Shown in pieces: positions 45,190 through 52,921 of a DNA stretch of 64,000 bases. Both the position numbers and the translations under genes were made by a program. The DNA lies in the NCBI GenBank assembly GCA_963813535.1, contig CAWEZH010000002.1:672001-736000 (forward strand), given 5' to 3'. The stretch's first letter is position 1; every line of letters begins with the position of its first letter. This DNA comes from an uncultured Chloroflexia bacterium (GTDB taxonomy: Bacteria; Chloroflexota; Limnocylindria; Limnocylindrales; CSP1-4). Under the pieces are notes generated by a model. That model was not told the DNA's origin. It did not search any database and was given only the letters and a program-made list of their open reading frames with translations.

Positions 45190-47022
45190 CTACCCCACCC
45201 CCCGGGCTTGCGATTCGGCCGCCAAGCGATCTGCGAACGCCTCCCAGGGTTCGGCCGGCTGTTGCTCGCCGCCTCTCGTCCTGGGTGACGCTGTCCGCGC
45301 TTCGATCTCGCGATCGCCCAGCACGACCATGTAGGGCACCTTCTGCTCCTGTGCCGTCCGGATCTTGTACTGCATCCGGTTCGACGAGGCGTCGACCTCG
45401 ACACGCAGCCCACGCCCGCGGAGCACGTCGGCGAGCTCCGACGCCGCCTCGACATGCCGATCGGCGATCGGGATGACCACCGCCTGTACCGGCGCCAGCC
45501 ACAACGGGAATGCTCCAGCGAAGTGCTCGATGAGGATCCCGATGAAACGCTCCAGCGAGCCGTAGATCGCCCGATGGATGGCGATCGGGCGCTGCGGCTT
45601 GCCCTCCTCATCGATGTAGGTCAGGTCGAAGCGTTCGGGGAGCATCGTCAGGTCGATCTGGATGGTCGCCATCTGCCACTCGCGCCCGAGGGCGTCGTCG
45701 ATGTAGATGTCGATCTTTGGCGCGTAGAACGTGCCGTCCTTCGGCTTCAGCTCGTAGCTGATATCGGCGGCAGCGAAGGCCTCACGCGTGAGCTGCTCCG
45801 CCCGTTCCCACAGCGCCGGGTCGCCGATCGCCTTGTCGGGCTTGGTCGCGAAGGAGAACCGCGGCTCCAGTCCGAACCAACCGTATGACTCCCGGACCTC
45901 GCCGAGCAGCGCCACGATCTCGTCGGTCAGCTGGTCGGGGCGGACGTACAGGTGAGCGTCGTCCTGGATGAACTGGCGGACGCGCGTCAACCCTGACAGC
46001 GTGCCCGAGCGTTCGTTCCGGTGCAGCCGTCCGAACTCGCTGAAGCGCAGCGGCAGGTCGCGGTACGACCGCAGCGAGGAGCGGTAGATGAACGTCGACT
46101 CAGGGCAGTTCATCGGCTTGAGACTGAAGGTCTGGTTCTCGGACTCGACCAGGAACATGTTGTCGCGATACAGGTCCCAGTGGCCCGACTGGCGCCAGAG
46201 CTTCTCGGACACCACGATCGGCGTCGACACCTCCTGGTAGCCGCGTCGCTCCTGGAGCTCGCGCATGGCCGTCTCGAGCGTCCGCCAGATGCGCTGGCCC
46301 TTGGGGTGCCAGAACGCCGAACCGGGCGACACATCGTGGAACGAGAACAGATCGAGGGCGACGCCGAGCCGTCGATGGTCGCGCTTCTTCGCTTCCGCAC
46401 GACGCCAGAGATACGCGTCGAGCTCCTCCTGCGTGGCCCATGCCGTTCCGTAGACGCGCTGGAGCATCGGGCGTTTCTCGTCGCCGCGCCAATACGCGCC
46501 GGCGGTGCCGAGCAGCTTGAACGGACCGATCTTGCCCGTGCTCGCTACATGCGGTCCGCGACACAGGTCGATGAAGGGACCCTGCCGATAGAACGTGGTC
46601 GGCGGCATCGGCGTGCCGTCGCGCGTCGACGTCGTAGTCAGGTCGTCGATGATCTCGACCTTGAAGTCCTGACCCTGCTCCGCAAGACGTTCTCGGGCGA
46701 CCTCGGGGGTCTCCTCGGTGAGCTCGAACGGGTGGTCGGCGGCGATCGATTCGCGCATCCGCTCTTCGATCTTCGGCAGGTCATCAGGAGTCAGCGGCCG
46801 GGGCACGAGGAAGTCGTAGTAGAAGCCGTCCTCGATGACGGGCCCGATGCCGAGCTTCGTCCCAGGGAACAGGTCGAGGACGGCCTCTGCCAGGACGTGG
46901 GCGGCGCTGTGGCGCATGGGCCCGAGCTCGCCGGACGCGCCGTGGTCCATGAGCTCCGTCGCACTGCCGCGCTCCGGTGCGTCCAGGACCTCTTCGACCT
47001 CGATGTGCTCGTCGTCCGTCAT
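45190..47022 (-). CDS. thrS: Threonine--tRNA ligase (no N-terminal TGS domain)
   Basis: HSAAH, DLCRGPH, RDHR, LKPMNCP, HRNE.SG, IHRAIYGSLERF; aaggag RBS. Confidence 0.98.
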   Translation of the reverse strand: MTDDEHIEVEEVLDAPERGSATELMDHGASGELGPMRHSAAHVLAEAVLDLFPGTKLGIGPVIEDGFYYDFLVPRPLTPDDLPKIEERMRESIAADHPFELTEETPEVARERLAEQGQDFKVEIIDDLTTTSTRDGTPMPPTTFYRQGPFIDLCRGPHVASTGKIGPFKLLGTAGAYWRGDEKRPMLQRVYGTAWATQEELDAYLWRRAEAKKRDHRRLGVALDLFSFHDVSPGSAFWHPKGQRIWRTLETAMRELQERRGYQEVSTPIVVSEKLWRQSGHWDLYRDNMFLVESENQTFSLKPMNCPESTFIYRSSLRSYRDLPLRFSEFGRLHRNERSGTLSGLTRVRQFIQDDAHLYVRPDQLTDEIVALLGEVRESYGWFGLEPRFSFATKPDKAIGDPALWERAEQLTREAFAAADISYELKPKDGTFYAPKIDIYIDDALGREWQMATIQIDLTMLPERFDLTYIDEEGKPQRPIAIHRAIYGSLERFIGILIEHFAGAFPLWLAPVQAVVIPIADRHVEAASELADVLRGRGLRVEVDASSNRMQYKIRTAQEQKVPYMVVLGDREIEARTASPRTRGGEQQPAEPWEAFADRLAAESQARGVG

Positions 47023-47041
47023 GTTCGACTCCTTGGAATCA

Positions 47042-47265
47042 CGAAACCCCTCGTCCACTGCCAGGACGAGAGGCATCTCCCGCGGTCCCACCTGCGTTCG
47101 CCGGCTCGAGCCGACGCGCTTTGCTGTCGCGCTATCGGGCGACTCCCGGACCGGTTCGCCGGTCGCTCACGGGTGGTGCGGGTTCGGGGTTCGGTCTCCG
47201 GGCTCCCAGCCATGGCCCAGCTCTCTGTGGACGTTCCCCGAGACGCGTGTCCCGATCGATGCGTA
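47042..47265 (-). promoter_or_regulatory. T-box riboswitch of thrS
   Basis: AGAGA and GGCUG stem-I motifs, ACC (Thr) codons in the specifier region, T-box AGGUGGGACCGCG, terminator CCUCUCGUCC...GGACGAGGGG-UUU. Confidence 0.9.
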
Positions 47266-47370
47266 TGGTTCAGACCCGCCGGAATGGCCCGACGACAGAC
47301 ATGCATGGTAGCAGCCGAGCGTCCGCCGGCTCCGGCGACGCCTCGTTGGCGAACGGCTCGGAAAGGGATC

Positions 47371-47447
47371 TGGTGGGCGACACTGGACTCGAACCAGTGA
47401 CCTCTTGCATGTCAAGCAAGTGCTCTAACCAGCTGAGCTAGCCGCCC
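47371..47447 (-). tRNA. trnV: tRNA-Val (GAC)
   Basis: GGGCGGCTAGCTCAGCTGGTTAGAGC...CTTGC-TTGACAT-GCAAG...GGTTCGAGTCC...CGCCCACCA; full cloverleaf with encoded CCA. Confidence 0.98.
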
Positions 47448-47567
47448 GGATCACGCGGGGATCACCCTGATGACTGCACAGGAGCTCACCCGTCGCGGCC
47501 GTCAATCTAGCAGAGGCACCCGGACTCGTCACGCCTGTCGACCTGGGCGACTCCTCGCGCCCACCGA

Positions 47568-49157
47568 ATGATGCGCGGCCTCGCGTTGCGCCATCTCGCC
47601 GTAGCATACGGGGATGTTCAACGGAGATCGCCCCGGGCCGCACTCCTGACACGGATCCCGCTACACCCGCTCCTGTTCGCCGCGTATGCGGTCCTGTTCC
47701 TCTATTCCGCGAACCTTGCCCTGGTGCTGCCCATCGATGCGCTCGCGCCGCTGGCACGCGCCGTCATCGCTGCCGCCATCCTGACCGCGGTGCTCGCGCT
47801 CGTGCTCCGCGACATCCGCAAAGGGGCGATCGTGGCGTCGGCGATCGTGATCGCGTATTTCGGGTTCGGGCACGTCGCGGGGTTTCTCACCGGTCTCGGT
47901 CTCGGCGACGTGGCCCAGCTCGGAGTGTGGGCCGCGGTCGTCGTCGTGACGTTCGTCCTCGCCGTGCGCGGGTCAGCGAGAGTGCCGCAGGCGACTGCTG
48001 GCCTCAACGTCGTCTCCATCGTCCTGGTCGTGATCGCCGCCGCGACGATCCTGCCGTACGAGGTCACGCGGGCAGGTCAGGAGCCGGTCTCGCACGCGGC
48101 CCCCGTCCTGGCCGGATCCGACGCCGCGCCCGGGCGTGACATCTACTTCCTGATCTTCGACCGATACGGCTCGGCCGACGCGATCGAGCGCCGCTTCGAC
48201 ATCACCGACAACGAGATGTACGGCTGGCTCGAGGAGCGCGGGTTCCAGGTCCCGTCGAACAGCCACGCGAACTATCGGGCAACGGACTTCTCCCTGGCCG
48301 CGACCCTCAACATGCAGTACCTCGACAACCTGACGCGCGACATCGGCCGCACATCGGATGACCGGACGCCGGCACAGGACATGATCCGGGAGCACGAGGT
48401 CGGCCGCTTCCTGAAGTCGGAGGGATACCGGTACTACCAGATCGGGTCATGGTTCGGCCCCACCCGCTCCGTCACGATCGCCGATGAGAACCTCGCGTAC
48501 GGCGTCGCCAGCGAGTTCGAGACGGTCCTGAACGACCTGACGATCATGCCGGCGATCGACCGTGTCCGCGGCGTCGTGAGCGCCGAGCCGACGGAGCGCG
48601 ACCGCCATCGGGAAGGAAGCCTGTTCGGGTTCCGGCAGCTGCGCCGGGTCAGTACTGCCCCGGGTCCGAAATTCGTCTTCGCCCACATCCTCCTGCCGCA
48701 CGATCCGTACGTCTTCAAGGCTGATGGCTCCCCGCTGTCCGAAGCCGACGCGAAGGCCGCGCCGGAGGCTCGGCTCTATGCCGACCACCTGGAGTTCGCG
48801 AACACGCAGATCAAGGAGATCGTGGGGTACCTGCTTTCCGGTCCCGAACAAACCCGACCGATCGTGATCATCGAGGGCGACGAAGGGCCGTTGATGTGCC
48901 AGTCCCTCGACTGCGTGAAGAACACGCCCGAATACCTGCGGATCCGTCTGGGGAACCTTGTCGCGATGTACCTGCCGGGCGTGGAAGCGGTGCTGCCCGA
49001 CACGTTCACGTCCGTGAACACGTTCAGGGTGGTATTCCGCGAGTACTTCGGCGCCGACCTCGAGCCACTTCCCGACCGTAGTTTCACGTGGCCCGACAAC
49101 AAGCACATCTACGACTTCAAGGACGTGACCGAGCAGCTCATCGTTCCGGGTGAGTGA
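47568..49157 (+). CDS. Membrane-anchored alkaline-phosphatase/sulfatase superfamily protein (NoeB-like); start uncertain
   Basis: 5 N-terminal TM; DIYFLIFDRY, NYRATDFSL, HILLPHDPY, IIEGDEG. Confidence 0.8.
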   Translation: MMRGLALRHLAVAYGDVQRRSPRAALLTRIPLHPLLFAAYAVLFLYSANLALVLPIDALAPLARAVIAAAILTAVLALVLRDIRKGAIVASAIVIAYFGFGHVAGFLTGLGLGDVAQLGVWAAVVVVTFVLAVRGSARVPQATAGLNVVSIVLVVIAAATILPYEVTRAGQEPVSHAAPVLAGSDAAPGRDIYFLIFDRYGSADAIERRFDITDNEMYGWLEERGFQVPSNSHANYRATDFSLAATLNMQYLDNLTRDIGRTSDDRTPAQDMIREHEVGRFLKSEGYRYYQIGSWFGPTRSVTIADENLAYGVASEFETVLNDLTIMPAIDRVRGVVSAEPTERDRHREGSLFGFRQLRRVSTAPGPKFVFAHILLPHDPYVFKADGSPLSEADAKAAPEARLYADHLEFANTQIKEIVGYLLSGPEQTRPIVIIEGDEGPLMCQSLDCVKNTPEYLRIRLGNLVAMYLPGVEAVLPDTFTSVNTFRVVFREYFGADLEPLPDRSFTWPDNKHIYDFKDVTEQLIVPGE

Positions 49158-49222
49158 TGCGGATCGCCCGCCGGCGCTATCCTCGGTGGCCCGAGATCCC
49201 GACGTTGCCGAGGAGGGCACGC

Positions 49223-49405
49223 ATGATCCCGCTCCTTGCCTATATCGACCCGGGTTCAGGTAGCCTCATCATCCAGGCAGCGATCGCTGCCATCATCGCC
49301 ATCCCGATCTTCTTCCGCACACAGATCGCCCGGGCGATGCGGGCGATCCGGCGCTCGGACGACCACGAGCCGACGGGCGAGGATGACGCGGCCACCAGGC
49401 TCTGA
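49223..49405 (+). CDS. Small membrane protein with AYIDPGSGS motif (60 aa)
   Basis: aggaggg RBS; MIPLLAYIDPGSGSLIIQAAIAAIIAIPIFFR. Confidence 0.8.
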   Translation: MIPLLAYIDPGSGSLIIQAAIAAIIAIPIFFRTQIARAMRAIRRSDDHEPTGEDDAATRL

Positions 49406-50822
49406 CCTCCAGGATCCCGGCGCGCCGCACGCTGTCGGCATCGCCGACGGGCGCGACGCCGGGTCATTCCGCGATCCGAGCGGATTCGTCTTCTGGCGTG
49501 ATGGCCAGCCGTACCGCCAGATCCAACGAACGTTCGCGACCGAGTGGGACGGGTTCGAGGCGAGCCCGCTCAAGCGCCGCCTCCTCGACCAGCGACGACT
49601 GATCCCGTACGAGCCGGTCGGGCTCGACTTCGCGACCACGTCCGGCGCCCACGCGGTCATTCGACCGGAGCGGATCGAGTTCCTCAGCTATCCCTACGAG
49701 TGGACGTTCGGCGAGCTACGCGAGTCGGCGCTGCTGACGCTCGACATCCAGCTCGAAGCGATCGGCGCCGGGTGGACCCTCAAGGACGCGTCGGCCTTCA
49801 ACATCCAGTTCCACGACGGCCGCCCGATCCACATCGATTCGTCGTCGTTCGAGCCCCTCGAGGAGGGCGCGCCGTGGGTCGCCTACCGCCAGTTCTGCGA
49901 GCAGTTCCTGGCGCCGCTGGCGCTGGTTGGACGGCGCGACGTCCGGCTTTCCGATCTCCTCAGCGTCGAACCTGACGGGATCGCGCTCGACCTGGCAAGC
50001 CGGCTGCTGCCGCGGCGGACATGGTTCGACTTCGGCCTCCTTTCCCACGTGCACCTCCATGCCAGAGCCCAGCTCCGTCACGCGGGAGGAGACGACGATG
50101 GACGTGCGGCGCGGCGCACCCGCATCCCGCGGGCCCGCCTGGAAGGGGTGATCCGGAGTCTGCGCTCGACCGTCGCTGCGCTCGACTGGCGCGCAGGCGG
50201 CACGGAATGGGCTGACTACGCCGAGCACACGAGCTACGGCGAGCGGGCGGCGGCGGACAAGGACCGACTTGTCGACAGGTTCGTGCGCGAGCTGCCGGGA
50301 CGGCGCGTGTGGGACCTCGGCGCAAACACCGGTCGCTTCAGCCGGATCGCGGCCGAGGCGGGCAAGCGAGTCGTCGCCCTCGACATCGATCCGGCCGCTG
50401 CCGAGCGACACTTTCGCGCCGTCCGCGAGGCCGGGCGGACCGACATCCTGCCGCTCGTCGTCGACATCGCCAACCCGACCCCGGCGCTCGGCTGGGCCGG
50501 GCGCGAGCGGCGCTCGCTCCTGGAGCGGGCAGATGCAGATGCGATCCTCGCGCTCGCCCTGGTCCACCACCTCGCGATCACCCGGAACGTGCCGCTGCCG
50601 ATGCTTCTCGACCTGTTCGCGGAGCTTGCCCCGTGGGCGCTCGTCGAGTTCGTGCCCAAGGACGACCCGATGGTCCGGCGGCTCCTCGCCACGCGACGGG
50701 ACGTCTTCGCCGACTACGACCTGGACAGCTTCCGCGCGGCTGCGGGGATTCGCTTCGAGATCGTCCGCGAGGAGCGGATCGCTGACAGCACGCGGGTGCT
50801 CTTCCTCCTGCACCGACGCTGA
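49383..50822 (+). CDS. NoeA-like protein: kinase-like N-terminus plus class I SAM methyltransferase
   Basis: SFRDPSGFV, SYPYEWTF, LKDASAFNIQF, PIHID; WDLGANTG, ALALVHHLAI, VEFVPKDD. Confidence 0.82.
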   Translation: MTRPPGSDLQDPGAPHAVGIADGRDAGSFRDPSGFVFWRDGQPYRQIQRTFATEWDGFEASPLKRRLLDQRRLIPYEPVGLDFATTSGAHAVIRPERIEFLSYPYEWTFGELRESALLTLDIQLEAIGAGWTLKDASAFNIQFHDGRPIHIDSSSFEPLEEGAPWVAYRQFCEQFLAPLALVGRRDVRLSDLLSVEPDGIALDLASRLLPRRTWFDFGLLSHVHLHARAQLRHAGGDDDGRAARRTRIPRARLEGVIRSLRSTVAALDWRAGGTEWADYAEHTSYGERAAADKDRLVDRFVRELPGRRVWDLGANTGRFSRIAAEAGKRVVALDIDPAAAERHFRAVREAGRTDILPLVVDIANPTPALGWAGRERRSLLERADADAILALALVHHLAITRNVPLPMLLDLFAELAPWALVEFVPKDDPMVRRLLATRRDVFADYDLDSFRAAAGIRFEIVREERIADSTRVLFLLHRR

Positions 50823-50845
50823 CGGAGGCGACAACGTCCGGGGCA

Positions 50846-51006
50846 TAACAAGGCCCACGACGGATACCGCCGTGGGCTTCGTTACGGGCGACCGAAGCCG
50901 CCCGCGTCGCCGGTCCCTCGAAGGTTCGTGGCCGCCGACCGGTGGCTCACGGATGTTCCACGTCCGTGCCGAATCGGATGCCCCAGCAGTCGAGTCGCCA
51001 GCGGCC
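50846..51006 (-). ncRNA. Candidate stand-alone structured sRNA (~160 nt)
   Basis: TG-g-TAGGAT at 51012-51020, 10-bp closing helix at the predicted +1, cUUCGg tetraloop hairpin, terminator hairpin followed by UUGUU. Confidence 0.55.
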
Positions 51007-51072
51007 CGGGAATCCTACCAGAGGGTGCGCCAGAGGGACGAACCGAGGGCTGCCCTCCGCCCGATCGTCCGG

Positions 51073-51207
51073 TCAGTAGGCGGGGGCGACCGCAGAGGGG
51101 GCGGCAGACGGAGCCGGGGCGCCGCTCGAACCGCCACCGGACGGCGAGCACGCGCCGAGTGCGCCGGCGAGCACCAGGATCAGCGCAACGATCGATCGAC
51201 GGACCAC
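51073..51207 (-). CDS. Very small lipoprotein (44 aa)
   Basis: aaggagg RBS, GTG start, MVRRSIVALILVLAGALGA-C lipobox, Ser/Ala/Pro tail. Confidence 0.75.
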   Translation of the reverse strand: MVRRSIVALILVLAGALGACSPSGGGSSGAPAPSAAPSAVAPAY

Positions 51208-51237
51208 GCGAGACCTCCTTCTCACTCCTGCCATGGG

Positions 51238-51266
51238 ATTCGGCGGACCCCTGCCGACCGGTTTCC
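51238..51266 (-). promoter_or_regulatory. Possible ECF-sigma promoter of the small lipoprotein gene
   Basis: GGAAACC-N17-CGAAT, 30 nt upstream of the start codon. Confidence 0.4.
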
Positions 51267-51281
51267 CGTGATGATGGCCCC

Positions 51282-52094
51282 ATGGAGGGCTACGAGTTGA
51301 TCGATGCCGGAGCCGGTCGCCGTCTCGAACGGTTCGGTGCGCACGTGGTCGACCGTCCGCATCCGGGTGCCGACGACCATCGGCGCGCACCCGCGCGTTG
51401 GCAAGACGCGGATCTTGCGTTCGACAGAGACACGGGCTGGAGCGGCGACGGTCTGGCGACGGCCCGGTCTGGCTGGGATGTGGACCTCGAGGGTCTCGGA
51501 TTGGAGTTGCGCCCGACCGAGACCGGCCAGGTCGGCGTGTTCCCAGAGCACGCGGTCACGTTGCCATGGCTCCGCGACCGCATCGACGCGGCACCAGAGC
51601 GGCCCGACGTCCTCAACCTCTTCGCGTTCACCGGCCTCGCCACCCTCGCGCTCGCCCGAGCCGGTTCAGCCGTCGTCCATGTCGATGCGGCTCGGCCCGC
51701 CGTCGAGTGGGCACGCCGGCACGCGGCGAGGAACGGCCTCGAGGACCGACCGATCCGCTGGCTCGTCGATGACGCACGAGCGTTCGTCGCCCGAGAGGTC
51801 CGTCGCGGTCGCCGCTATCACGGCGTCGTGCTCGACCCACCGACATACGGGCACGGGCCGTCCGGCAAGGCGTGGCGGCTGTCGCGTGACCTCCAGCCGT
51901 TGCTGGACGACGTCCGTCGCCTGCTGGTGCCGGGCGCGTTCATCCTGCTGACCGCTCACGCGGCCGATCTCGACCCGGGTCGACTGGGCGGCTACCTGGG
52001 CGAAGCGGCGGAGGTCGGCGACCTGGTCATCACGGCGACATCGGGAGCGACCCTGCGGCTCGGTGCCTACGCCCGCCTGGGCCGCGCATCATGA
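51282..52094 (+). CDS. Class I SAM-dependent methyltransferase (RlmI/RlmK-like)
   Basis: YELIDAGAGRRLERFG, VGVFPEH, VLNLFAFTG, LDPPTYG. Confidence 0.88.
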   Translation: MEGYELIDAGAGRRLERFGAHVVDRPHPGADDHRRAPARWQDADLAFDRDTGWSGDGLATARSGWDVDLEGLGLELRPTETGQVGVFPEHAVTLPWLRDRIDAAPERPDVLNLFAFTGLATLALARAGSAVVHVDAARPAVEWARRHAARNGLEDRPIRWLVDDARAFVAREVRRGRRYHGVVLDPPTYGHGPSGKAWRLSRDLQPLLDDVRRLLVPGAFILLTAHAADLDPGRLGGYLGEAAEVGDLVITATSGATLRLGAYARLGRAS

Positions 52095-52921
52095 GCTCGA
52101 TGCCCAGCAAAACGATCGCCAGCCCGTCGAACCCCCAGATCAAGTCGGTCGCCCGGCTGCGAGATCGGCGACAGCGCGATTCGACCGGTCTGACGCTGGT
52201 CGACGGGGCGCGCGAGGTGCGCCGTGCGCTCGATTCGGGGATCGAGGTCGTCGAAGCGTTCGTGTGCGAGCCGATGCTCGCTGGTGAGGATGCCCGTGCC
52301 GCGCTCGACGCCATGGCGGCGCGCGGCATCCCGTCGGTCAGCACGACCGAGGCGGCGTTCGCCAAGGTGGCGTTCGGCGATCGGGCCGACGGGCTGATCG
52401 CGGTCGTTCGCGTGCCAGGGCTACTCCTCGATGACCTCGAGCTCCCTGCTGATCCCTTGATCGTCGTCCTCGAAGGCGTCGAGAAGCCCGGCAACCTCGG
52501 CGCCGTCCTCCGGAGCGCCGACGGTGCCGGCGCGGATGCGTTGATCGCCGCCTCGCCGCGGACCGACCTGTTCAATCCGAACGCCATCCGGGCGAGCGCA
52601 GGCACGATCTTCTCGATCCCGATCGCCGCCGCGCCACGTCCGGACGTCGTCGGTTGGCTGCGCGAGCGATCGATCCGGATCGTCGCTGCGAGGGTCGATG
52701 CCGATGAGCTCTATACCGCCACTGACCTGACCGGCCCGCTCGCCGTCGTGTTCGGGAGCGAGGCCGACGGCCTGACCGATGCCTGGGATGCCGCCGACAT
52801 CGCCGCCGCCCGGCTCCCGATGCGGGGCATCGCGGACAGTCTCAACGTGTCGGTGTCGGCCGCGGTGGTCCTGTACGAGGCGAGACGGCAACGCGACCGC
52901 AAGGCGCACACGCCAGACTGA
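52091..52921 (+). CDS. TrmH/SpoU family RNA methyltransferase
   Basis: SPSNPQIK, EKPGNLGAVLRSA, FGSEADGL, LPMRGIADSLNVS. Confidence 0.93.
   Translation: MSSMPSKTIASPSNPQIKSVARLRDRRQRDSTGLTLVDGAREVRRALDSGIEVVEAFVCEPMLAGEDARAALDAMAARGIPSVSTTEAAFAKVAFGDRADGLIAVVRVPGLLLDDLELPADPLIVVLEGVEKPGNLGAVLRSADGAGADALIAASPRTDLFNPNAIRASAGTIFSIPIAAAPRPDVVGWLRERSIRIVAARVDADELYTATDLTGPLAVVFGSEADGLTDAWDAADIAAARLPMRGIADSLNVSVSAAVVLYEARRQRDRKAHTPD

Follow-up and report, generated by a model that had tools for sequence, protein, structure and literature searches.

A conserved rod-shaped RNA of soil Limnocylindria (Chloroflexota) that normally lies directly upstream of tRNA-Val(GAC) and persists where inserted DNA has separated the two

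Results

The locus and its features

The window is the whole stretch of DNA analysed here, 64,000 nucleotides from the genome of an uncultured member of Candidatus Limnocylindria (Chloroflexota), designated G000 among the G-numbered genomes of this study. Chloroflexota was also the guess, a right one, of an earlier sequence-only reading of the window. Judged by its conservation and covariation, the locus encodes a genuine structured non-coding RNA on the minus strand. Behind it lie a relic of a tRNA gene, a terminator-like hairpin and the remainder of an insertion that now separates the RNA from an intact tRNA-Val(GAC) gene. The features are listed below in minus-strand order, and minus-strand elements are given from their 5′ to their 3′ ends.

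51012..51041, minus strand: predicted promoter, with a -35-like TCGTCC (51041-51036), an 18-nt spacer ending in TGG, and a -10 TAGGAT (51017-51012)
50904..51006, minus strand: conserved rod-shaped RNA (type B), about 100 nt, defined by its match to covariance model R1 and by covariation
51003-50998 and 50913-50908, minus strand: closing helix P1, CGCUGG/CCGGCG, conserved in relatives
Within 50904..51006, minus strand: inner helices P2-P4
50968-50963 and 50953-50948, minus strand: helix P5, CACGGA/UCCGUG
50962-50954, minus strand: apical loop CGUGGAACA
50947-50942, minus strand: 3′ bulge AGCCAC
50907-50904, minus strand: 4-nt tail ACGC
50886..50903, minus strand: vestigial acceptor stem of tRNA-Val (minihelix), GGGCGGC (50903-50897), loop UUCG (50896-50893) and GUCGCCC (50892-50886)
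50846..50880, minus strand: terminator-like hairpin GCCCACGGCGG-UAU-CCGUCGUGGGC (50877-50853) and a weak U tract, within the end portion of the insertion
47448..50895: insertion of 3,448 bp between the element and the tRNA, delimited by synteny with three relatives
49236-50822, plus strand: insertion ORF of 528 aa with a SAM-methyltransferase-like C-terminus
47568-49157, plus strand: insertion ORF of 529 aa
47371..47447, minus strand: intact tRNA-Val(GAC), 3.4 kb downstream of the rod, with its own -10-like TAGATT (47509-47504)

All the minus-strand motifs listed by the sequence-only reading are present, among them the extended -10 (TGG-TAGGAT, 51020-51012) and the CACGGA/TCCGTG stem (50968-50963 with 50953-50948). 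Two details of that reading did not stand up in the comparison with relatives. The two CCCTCTGG repeats (51037-51030 and 51025-51018, 12 nt apart) exist, but only the promoter-proximal copy is common to relatives. The proposed long-range helix of GGCCGCTGGC (51006-50997) with GTCGGCGGCC (50939-50930), GGCCGCUGGC/GUCGGCGGCC, is possible in this sequence, but its 3′ partner varies in relatives and the conserved closing helix is P1. The next gene is convergent, as had been stated, since the plus-strand ORF ends at 50822. On the other side lies an RlmI/RlmK-like methyltransferase gene on the plus strand (ORF 50928-52094). Its homology with relatives begins at residue 89-115, which places the gene start near 51190-51270, so that the gene does not overlap the element.

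The predicted transcription start is the G at about 51005-51006. A -10 hexamer TA(T/G)(G/C)AT stands 4-7 nt ahead of model position 1 in 76 of 76 aligned copies, with GG directly before it in 73-74 of the 76, and a majority also have a TTGTCG-like -35 18 nt upstream. These features make up a conserved promoter of the sigma-70 type and uphold the earlier claim that the RNA has its own promoter; a generic promoter scan gave no match at this site.

Structure, covariation and strand

The rod was derived by eye and then tested on a plain MAFFT alignment of 10 sequences. In this alignment 93.8% of the cells are paired, versus 33.6-48.8% when the partners are slid by 1-3 columns, and 8 pairs change on both sides. 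A model-fitted alignment of 76 matches (74 distinct) gave 91.3% versus 34.0-47.1%, with 20 of 31 pairs changing on both sides, and none of 500 shuffles reached any of five measures. Since the model-fitted alignment is biased towards the structure, only the MAFFT test counts as independent.

On the alignment the rod consists of P1 (CGCUGG/CCGGCG), P2, P2b, P3, P4 and P5 (C-R-C-G-G/C-C-G-Y-G), the last closed by an 11-nt loop and followed by a 3′ bulge ARCCAA. Its largest internal loop is 1 x 7 nt. At a threshold of at least 95%, 33 columns are invariant. Among the invariant stretches are GCCGC.GG (5′ end), UGGAACACCC (P5 loop), G.GA.CCA (behind P5) and GCGA (3′ end). Rod length varies between 97 and 108 nt across copies, which argues against coding.

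The strand is fixed by bit scores, by U-G pairs and by the common orientation of the promoter and the tRNA. In the forward direction these loci reach 99-117 bits, in reverse only 26.7-42.6 bits, and U-G pairs are frequent, for example UG at pair 7-119 in 59 of 74 sequences. The strand cannot be told from folding energy alone (z = -2.95 for the minus versus -3.73 for the plus strand), and the case for a genuine RNA rests on conservation and covariation, not on energy. The earlier description of a non-coding structured RNA on the minus strand is borne out.

Distribution

BLAST searches with the region found the central ~120 nt in 18 of 24 genomes of the same genus and in none of 16 genomes of the sister family. 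The covariance model R1 matches the locus at 50903-51006 with 58 bits (E 1e-10). It has matches in 99 of 131 genomes of the genus, 97 of them with a single match, and none in the other 32. Some of the R1-negative genomes of the genus carry a longer type C form, described below (type C: 3 of 10 genus genomes). An order-level search matched 13 of 21 genomes of the genus and had one genuine match outside it, in G256. The matches in G159 and G153 (E about 0.01) lie in stretches that have no tRNA and look coding by eye, and they are likely false positives. R1 was found in 0 of 42 genomes of the sister family, whose genomes are 1.1 Mb in size. The best tRNA match in that family is a tRNA-Val(CAC) with a short leader (5 loci inspected) and is uninformative.

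An exact core pattern occurs in 76 stretches among 185,579 species genomes (one genome per species) and in no viral contig. All 76 are in metagenome-assembled genomes titled Limnocylindria, Limnocylindrales, Chloroflexia, Chloroflexota, Anaerolineaceae or Thermomicrobiales. In all, the family numbers more than 100 observed copies with strong covariation and has no Rfam match. With Rfam 15 the only match in the window at the gathering score is a tRNA, and the only match at the element up to E = 10, ncS037, is spurious (20.4 bits against a threshold of 112). The Chloroflexi-1 motif (RF01698), which is listed for Chloroflexus aggregans (PMC2864571), has no match at the element.

We found no description of the rod in the literature on tRNA-spacer-derived sRNAs (judged by title), on Limnocylindria and tRNA, or on Chloroflexi-1. 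Among the papers on Limnocylindria and tRNA, none concerns non-coding RNA by title and abstract. We regard the RNA as previously undescribed and as specific to this lineage of soil Chloroflexota.

The rod as a leader of tRNA-Val(GAC)

In relatives the element is followed by a spacer of 4-5 nt and then by tRNA-Val(GAC), which begins with GGGCGGC and has GTCGCCC as its 3′ acceptor strand. A full tRNA-Val(GAC) abuts the rod in 58 of 81 copies examined, where the two would share a transcript; in this genome the insertion has ended the adjacency. In 5 copies the rod is followed by no more than the tRNA's 5′ half, which reaches to the anticodon loop; in 2 the tRNA has its own promoter and lies at a distance of 91 or 148 nt; and in 16 there is no tRNA within 330 nt. 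The earlier description of a stand-alone gene therefore holds for the promoter but not for the native layout. There the rod is a 5′ leader, which RNase P would be expected to cut off; this genome encodes a type A RNase P RNA (C2:315611-315984). Attached copies have no terminator or alternative pairing between rod and tRNA, just the spacer.

The order element, tRNA-Val, T-box leader and thrS is kept in 45 of 69 loci. A nearly identical tRNA-Val(GAC) was matched in 121 of 121 genomes from 39 genera, a tally that includes the unpublished genome G272, on which no other result rests. None of the other tRNA and tmRNA genes of this genome (51 genes in all) has a comparable leader.

An insertion and an acceptor-stem relic

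In G103, G096 and G006 the sequences matching 52416..50896 and 47447..45869 are contiguous, and synteny with relatives ends at 50896. The 3,448 bp between these flanks carry the two ORFs listed above, which were annotated with Pfam and NCBIfam. The end of the insertion next to the tRNA bears a promoter and a leader, and the sequence of the detached tRNA-Val(GAC) agrees to 100% with that of the tRNA next to the element in relatives.

The UUCG hairpin noted earlier (GGGCGGC-TTCG-GTCGCCC, 50903-50886) is present, but it is what remains of the acceptor stem of the disrupted tRNA. Its two strands agree fully with those of the acceptor stem in the tRNA-Val gene of relatives, and the minihelix folds with -17.9 kcal/mol (z -3.8). 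It consists of the opening 8 nt of the former tRNA, 3 further nt of different sequence and the GTCGCCC at the end of the inserted DNA, after which comes the terminator. This terminator, a hairpin at 50877-50853 followed by CTTGTTAT, had also been seen correctly (a scan found 1 site versus 0.2 expected); it is, however, part of the 3.45-kb insertion and arrived with it. The earlier length of about 160 nt is accordingly too great: the conserved RNA has about 100 nt, and the last 60 nt are the tRNA relic and a terminator from inserted DNA. A AACGAAGCCCACGG...GTGGGCC module also follows the detached elements of G001, G008, G118, G131, G101, G080, G138, G064 and G024.

Four genomes share the junction GTCGCCC-G(A)TAACGAAGCCCACGG... 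and differ in the stretch that separates GTCGCCC from the element.

G064: tRNA 5′ half and a further 23 nt
G024: nucleotides 1-18 of the tRNA (13-bp hairpin)
G138: 9 + 6 nt
G000: 8 + 3 nt

G024 has a downstream gene in common with G000, though its element is of the longer type C. Other inserts hit the same point in the anticodon loop in G127, G129, G125, G041, G245 and G307. The insert of G129 (10.3 kb, between a 5′ half and a full copy of the tRNA) carries ordinary cargo, namely riboflavin synthesis, glycosyltransferases and GH65, and that of G008 measures 7.4 kb. No integrase was found among the 19 ORFs tested from these two inserts, and we rejected the label of a classical integrative island for them on this ground. 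The polarity of insertion is unusual for a tRNA gene, in that the incoming DNA brings a promoter and the tRNA's 5′ half instead of its 3′ half.

As a possible substrate of RNase P, the relic offers a stable 7-bp acceptor helix. Its 3′ side reads GUAA rather than ACCA, and 2 extra pairs are predicted at -1 and -2; this 2-bp extension of the helix past tRNA position +1 could hinder RNase P.

Other leaders of tRNA-Val(GAC)

We distinguish leaders of types A, B and C and bare promoters. Type A is a short hairpin, GCGRCGCG-ACGGAAC-CGCGYCGC, whose halves resemble P1 and its flanks (GAC...GGRAC). Type B is the rod at 50904-51006. Type C comprises longer forms of 115-155 nt that have in common a P5 hairpin with an (AC)NGGAAC(A) loop, a AUUCAACGG-like flank and a 3′ domain with an AGCCAGG loop. 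In several genera tRNA-Val is preceded by a bare promoter without a structured leader. Model R2, built for one type C group, matches 12 of 151 genomes of the family: 8 of 9 in genus g9, 1 of 2 in g35 and 3 of 10 in g1. Rfam searches of 16 related loci covering all leader types returned only tRNAs, a weak T-box elsewhere and a weak, spurious sRNA match (sot2652, E 0.61).

A kissing pair between the GGAAC loop and a downstream GGUUCC in the long forms was considered and rejected. RNAalifold pairs GGUUCCG with CGGAACC next to the tRNA, and G159 has GGCCCC with the loop unchanged, which further disfavours it. In G299 and G245, which belong to two genera, a near-identical structured leader with a GGAACA hairpin precedes a distal tRNA copy.

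Contigs from RNA-labelled libraries

Libraries labelled as RNA, from three studies, contain short contigs over the element. Such contigs cannot show ends or levels and may derive from DNA.

X16: 180 nt, spanning 50819-50999 with 4 differing letters and 1 gap; its labelling as RNA is also a guess
X17: 223 nt, spanning 50889-51110 with 7 differing letters and 5 gaps
X18: 151 nt, spanning 50913-51049 with 5 differing letters and 2 gaps, and with 16 loose letters besides

X17 extends about 100 nt upstream of the predicted start, which fits read-through from upstream, the arrangement of a relative, or DNA in the library. The flanking genes are not covered in X16-X18, and X20 covers only parts of the flanks; lack of cover in contigs is uninformative. 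We take these contigs as a weak hint that the rod is expressed, not that it has an independent start.

Discussion

A probable function of its own for the rod

The rod is about equally well preserved in detached and in attached copies. The means for the 22 detached copies are 27.5 intact pairs out of 31 and 32.3 retained invariant columns out of 33, and those for the 54 copies counted as attached are 28.3 and 32.9 (one of the latter, L052, has its tRNA at +148). Six detached copies (G001, G008, G118a, G118b, G131 and G101) share the junction GAAGAACGAAGCCC and are 78-93% identical to one another. Within this clade P1 has undergone a compensatory change (CGCUGC/GCGGCG versus CGUCGC/GCGACG). The tRNA relics beside the rod are decayed or deleted, while the rod is intact. 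The tRNA-Val gene has its own bare promoters in several genera and in genomes with a detached rod, from which it would be expressed without the rod.

The intact detached copies, the compensatory change in P1, the decay of the relics and the bare tRNA promoters together favour a function of the rod itself. We consider it somewhat more probable than the opposite that the rod is a stable RNA with its own function, acting in trans, rather than only a cis-acting leader. The paired ends, the invariant bases in helix, loop and bulge, the single copy, the tRNA-type promoter and the survival of detached copies all speak for a stable, trans-acting RNA. The proposal of the sequence-only reading, an undescribed trans-acting ncRNA, stands as far as the missing Rfam family and the intact detached copies go, and its trans action is an inference. 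The conservation behind it is broad (99 of 131 genomes of the genus; 20 of 31 pairs changing on both sides), and the covariance-model search found no Rfam family matching the element. The main weakness of the argument is that the detachment events may individually be too recent for visible decay. In many genera of the family tRNA-Val has nothing before it but a short hairpin leader or a bare promoter, which indicates that the rod is not universally required. The 32 genus genomes with no R1 match, the complete loss of the minihelix from the G001 clade and the failure to detect CsrA, Hfq or Ro/TROVE as a partner also count against this reading.

The course of events may be pictured as follows. 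Transcription would start at about 51005 from the conserved sigma-70-type promoter, and the first ~100 nt would fold into the rod, with the 5′ and 3′ ends paired in P1 and with the invariant apical loop UGGAACA and the invariant 3′ bulge ARCCAA on display. In the commonest, ancestral layout the rod ends 4-5 nt before tRNA-Val(GAC), and a cut by RNase P at tRNA +1 would leave it with a short 3′ tail. Here the rod was detached by DNA that went into the tRNA gene; the transcript would pass through the 7-bp acceptor-stem relic capped by UUCG and stop at the terminator borne by the insertion. The relic may still serve as a handle for RNase P or as a stabilising 3′ hairpin. Once released, the rod would probably act in trans by means of its invariant loop and bulge. 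Binding to a protein or RNP seems weakly favoured over antisense pairing.

A more detailed version of this reading is tentative. The rod would be a housekeeping-type RNA of the Limnocylindria that uses the tRNA as a built-in 3′-end signal, a bacterial counterpart of MALAT1-mascRNA; where insertions destroy the tRNA, the acceptor hairpin would be selected for trimming by RNase P, and the loop and bulge would bind a protein or RNP. The four deletion derivatives of differing length (G064, G024, G138 and G000) all retain both acceptor strands.

Alternatives to an independent RNA

The alternative that survives best, although we think it unlikely, is that the rod is purely a cis-acting 5′ leader of pre-tRNA-Val that serves transcription, folding or RNase P processing, and that the detached copies are relics that have yet to decay. 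Its attachment to the tRNA in 58 of 81 copies with a constant 4-5-nt spacer would be expected of such a leader. So would the short hairpin found at the same place in many other genera, from which the rod looks like an expansion, and searches for a trans partner (CsrA, TROVE, Hfq) found none. Against this, detached copies keep structure, invariant bases and promoter as attached ones do, one detached clade has diverged to 78-93% identity with compensatory changes in P1, the adjacent tRNA relics are decayed or deleted beside an intact rod, and tRNA-Val stands on bare promoters in several genera and in genomes with a detached rod.

Far less probable is a leader that senses a ligand or a tRNA, as a riboswitch, attenuator or T-box-like element, and controls read-through into the tRNA-Val and T-box-thrS unit. 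The position upstream of tRNA-Val, T-box leader and thrS, in an order kept in 45 of 69 loci, and the high degree of structure with invariant loops would suit such a control element. Attached copies, however, have no terminator or alternative pairing before the tRNA, the alignments show no conserved GUC specifier, no T-box model matches the element, and detached copies are conserved though just a terminator comes after them.

Equally improbable is that the rod is no host RNA but part of mobile DNA that targets tRNA-Val, as an attachment site or as a leader borne by an island. The anticodon loop of tRNA-Val is indeed a hot spot for several different inserts, and the near-identical leader at a distal tRNA copy in G299 and G245 suggests transfer with an island. 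The type B rod, however, lies on the resident side of the insertion with 1.5 kb of upstream synteny, is single-copy in nearly all genomes and is absent from the viral contigs, and no integrase was seen in the two inserts examined.

It is very improbable that the RNA is only the 3′ UTR of the small putative lipoprotein ORF upstream (51216-51073), which is on the same strand, ends about 70 nt before the RNA and is joined to it by the span of one RNA-library contig (50889-51110), given that a -10 hexamer stands at a fixed distance in 76 of 76 copies and that the ORF has no tblastn match in 69 related loci while the RNA is conserved.

The repeated insertions into tRNA-Val form a natural experiment in which a leader is separated from its tRNA and survives. 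As comparative evidence that the 5′ leader of a tRNA can be a functional RNA itself, this survival is unusually direct. With the rod, a large and uncultured lineage of soil bacteria, on whose RNA biology we found nothing published, gains a well-supported family of structured RNAs.

Comparison with known RNA families and systems

Several known families were considered and set aside. The earlier statement that the element is not tmRNA, SRP RNA or RNase P RNA agrees with the finding that SRP RNA and RNase P RNA are encoded elsewhere in the genome; the SRP RNA lies at C2:38894-38993 (75.1 bits), and RF00169 has no match at the element. A 6S RNA is disfavoured by the absence of a large central bubble from the ~100-nt rod and of any RF00013 match at the element. 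RF00013 finds nothing in this genome either, with a model that detects 6S RNA in only 5 of 14 control genomes. In this genome, which is 92.9% complete, no CsrA (PF02599), no TROVE protein (Ro60/Rsr) and no Hfq was matched, and we rejected a CsrB/RsmZ-type sponge, for which the GGA in the loops had spoken, a Y RNA and an Hfq-dependent sRNA.

The rod resembles SRP 4.5S and 6S RNA in its closing helix of paired ends, its conserved apical and internal loops, its strong constitutive-type promoter and its single copy. It differs in that SRP RNA is encoded elsewhere, that a 6S-like central bubble is absent and that neither Rfam model matches the rod.

T-box Stem I is likewise a long irregular hairpin in a tRNA-related context, and the same genome uses T-boxes. 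The rod differs from it in having no specifier codon, T-box sequence or antiterminator and in the place of its bulge, which is 3′ of the loop and 5 bp away. RF00230 has no match at 50700-51200, the alignments have no conserved GUC, and no terminator or antiterminator precedes the tRNA. A double T-loop like the apex of Stem I was considered, since UGGAA and AGCCA resemble T-loop pentads, and was rejected: the bulge is on the 3′ side, 5 bp from the loop, and the first U is replaced by A or C in some genera. Pairing of the loop with the T arm of the tRNA was rejected as well, only 4 bp being possible by eye.

Minihelices and hairpins are model substrates of bacterial RNase P, and the precursor of 4.5S RNA is another substrate. 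The relic resembles them in being an acceptor-stem helix that follows a 5′ leader and is capped by a stable tetraloop. Unlike them it lacks a 3′ RCCA, and its helix may extend 2 bp past +1.

RtT RNA of the E. coli tyrT operon and the 3′ETS-leuZ sponge are reportedly stable RNAs that are co-transcribed with tRNAs and freed by tRNA processing. The rod shares with them its place as a non-tRNA RNA on a tRNA transcript, an end that tRNA-processing nucleases would set and possible action after release. It differs in lying 5′ of the tRNA, so that RNase P would form its 3′ end, in being highly structured with strong covariation, and in persisting, once detached, as a separate gene that ends in a terminator; neither sequence nor Rfam links it to either of them.

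In MALAT1-mascRNA and in tRNA-linked snoRNAs and miRNAs, a tRNA-like fold downstream sets the 3′ end of the upstream RNA. The likeness lies in a tRNA or tRNA-like module placed directly downstream as a signal for 3′-end processing. The present system is bacterial, its downstream module is a real and essential tRNA, and the 7-bp relic is a handle by inference only. If the relic does act as a handle for RNase P, it would be a bacterial case of ending an RNA with a tRNA-like module, as has so far been described from eukaryotes and their viruses.

Short and long leaders of tRNA-Val(GAC)

A short hairpin, GCGRCGCG-ACGGAAC-CGCGYCGC, is conserved in many genera at 3-8 nt upstream of tRNA-Val(GAC) (loci L107, L108, L129, L135, L212, L216 and L218, among others). 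The long leaders may have expanded from this hairpin as an ancestral core. In other genera tRNA-Val is preceded by additional long leaders, each about 144 nt in length (L112 in genome G195, L118 in G210, and L115, L229 and L230), and the motifs they have in common include GUAGGUCAAG, AGUUAUCGGGU and GAGCACGAAAC. The loop CAGGAACACC of L118 is perfectly complementary over 10 nt to GGUGUUCCUG, near the tRNA. Only L229 and L230 among these leaders were scanned against Rfam, and in each the sole match was the locus's own tRNA.

Insertions into tRNA-Val(GAC) and displaced leaders

DNA has inserted repeatedly into the anticodon loop of tRNA-Val(GAC), with an unusual polarity. Examples are the insertion at 47448-50895 in the window and those in L254 (G129), L253 (G008), L084, L082, L273 and L274. 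On the 5' side, the old promoter and leader keep a truncated 5' half of the tRNA; the intact tRNA is found at the insert's distal end, preceded by a new promoter (TCTGCTAGATT type). The inserts are 1.4-10.3 kb in size and their cargo is ordinary; neither of the two that were checked showed an integrase.

A 151-nt structured leader upstream of tRNA-Val, containing a GGAACA hairpin and two CAGUUAU.GGGU motifs, is nearly identical in L122 (G299) and L213 (G245), which are from two different genera. In G245 it is placed before the distal tRNA copy, and the resident type C element, a longer related leader form, lies 7 kb upstream. These loci suggest that some tRNA-Val inserts bring their own leader and transfer between genera.

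The element is followed in L041 (G065) and L029 (G126) by degenerate tRNA-like sequences, in which the acceptor and D arm are present and the T arm is broken; these look like tRNA-Val copies in decay. Two genomes contain the rod twice: G118 (L061 and L077), where both copies are detached and each ends in a terminator, and G047, with two matches to R1, the covariance model of the rod.

ORFs flanking the element and tRNA-Val

51073-51216, minus strand: small ORF with a lipoprotein-like signal, LAGALGAC, and a tail rich in Ala, Pro and Ser
47059-47268, minus strand: divergent T-box leader, upstream of the synthetase ORF
45190-47091, minus strand: class II aminoacyl-tRNA synthetase, thrS-like, 633 aa, with a Thr/Ala SAD domain

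The small ORF upstream of the element is a doubtful gene. A tblastn search with it gave no match across 69 related loci; close relatives have a similar ORF terminating in ...APAY*.

tRNA-Val is followed by thrS in 45 of the 69 related loci. The T-box leader scores 37.4 bits (E 1e-6), far under the Rfam gathering score of 93, and the same weak T-box is located after tRNA-Val in G101. Both AGAGA and GGUGG.ACCGCG, hallmarks of T-boxes, are present in the window's leader.
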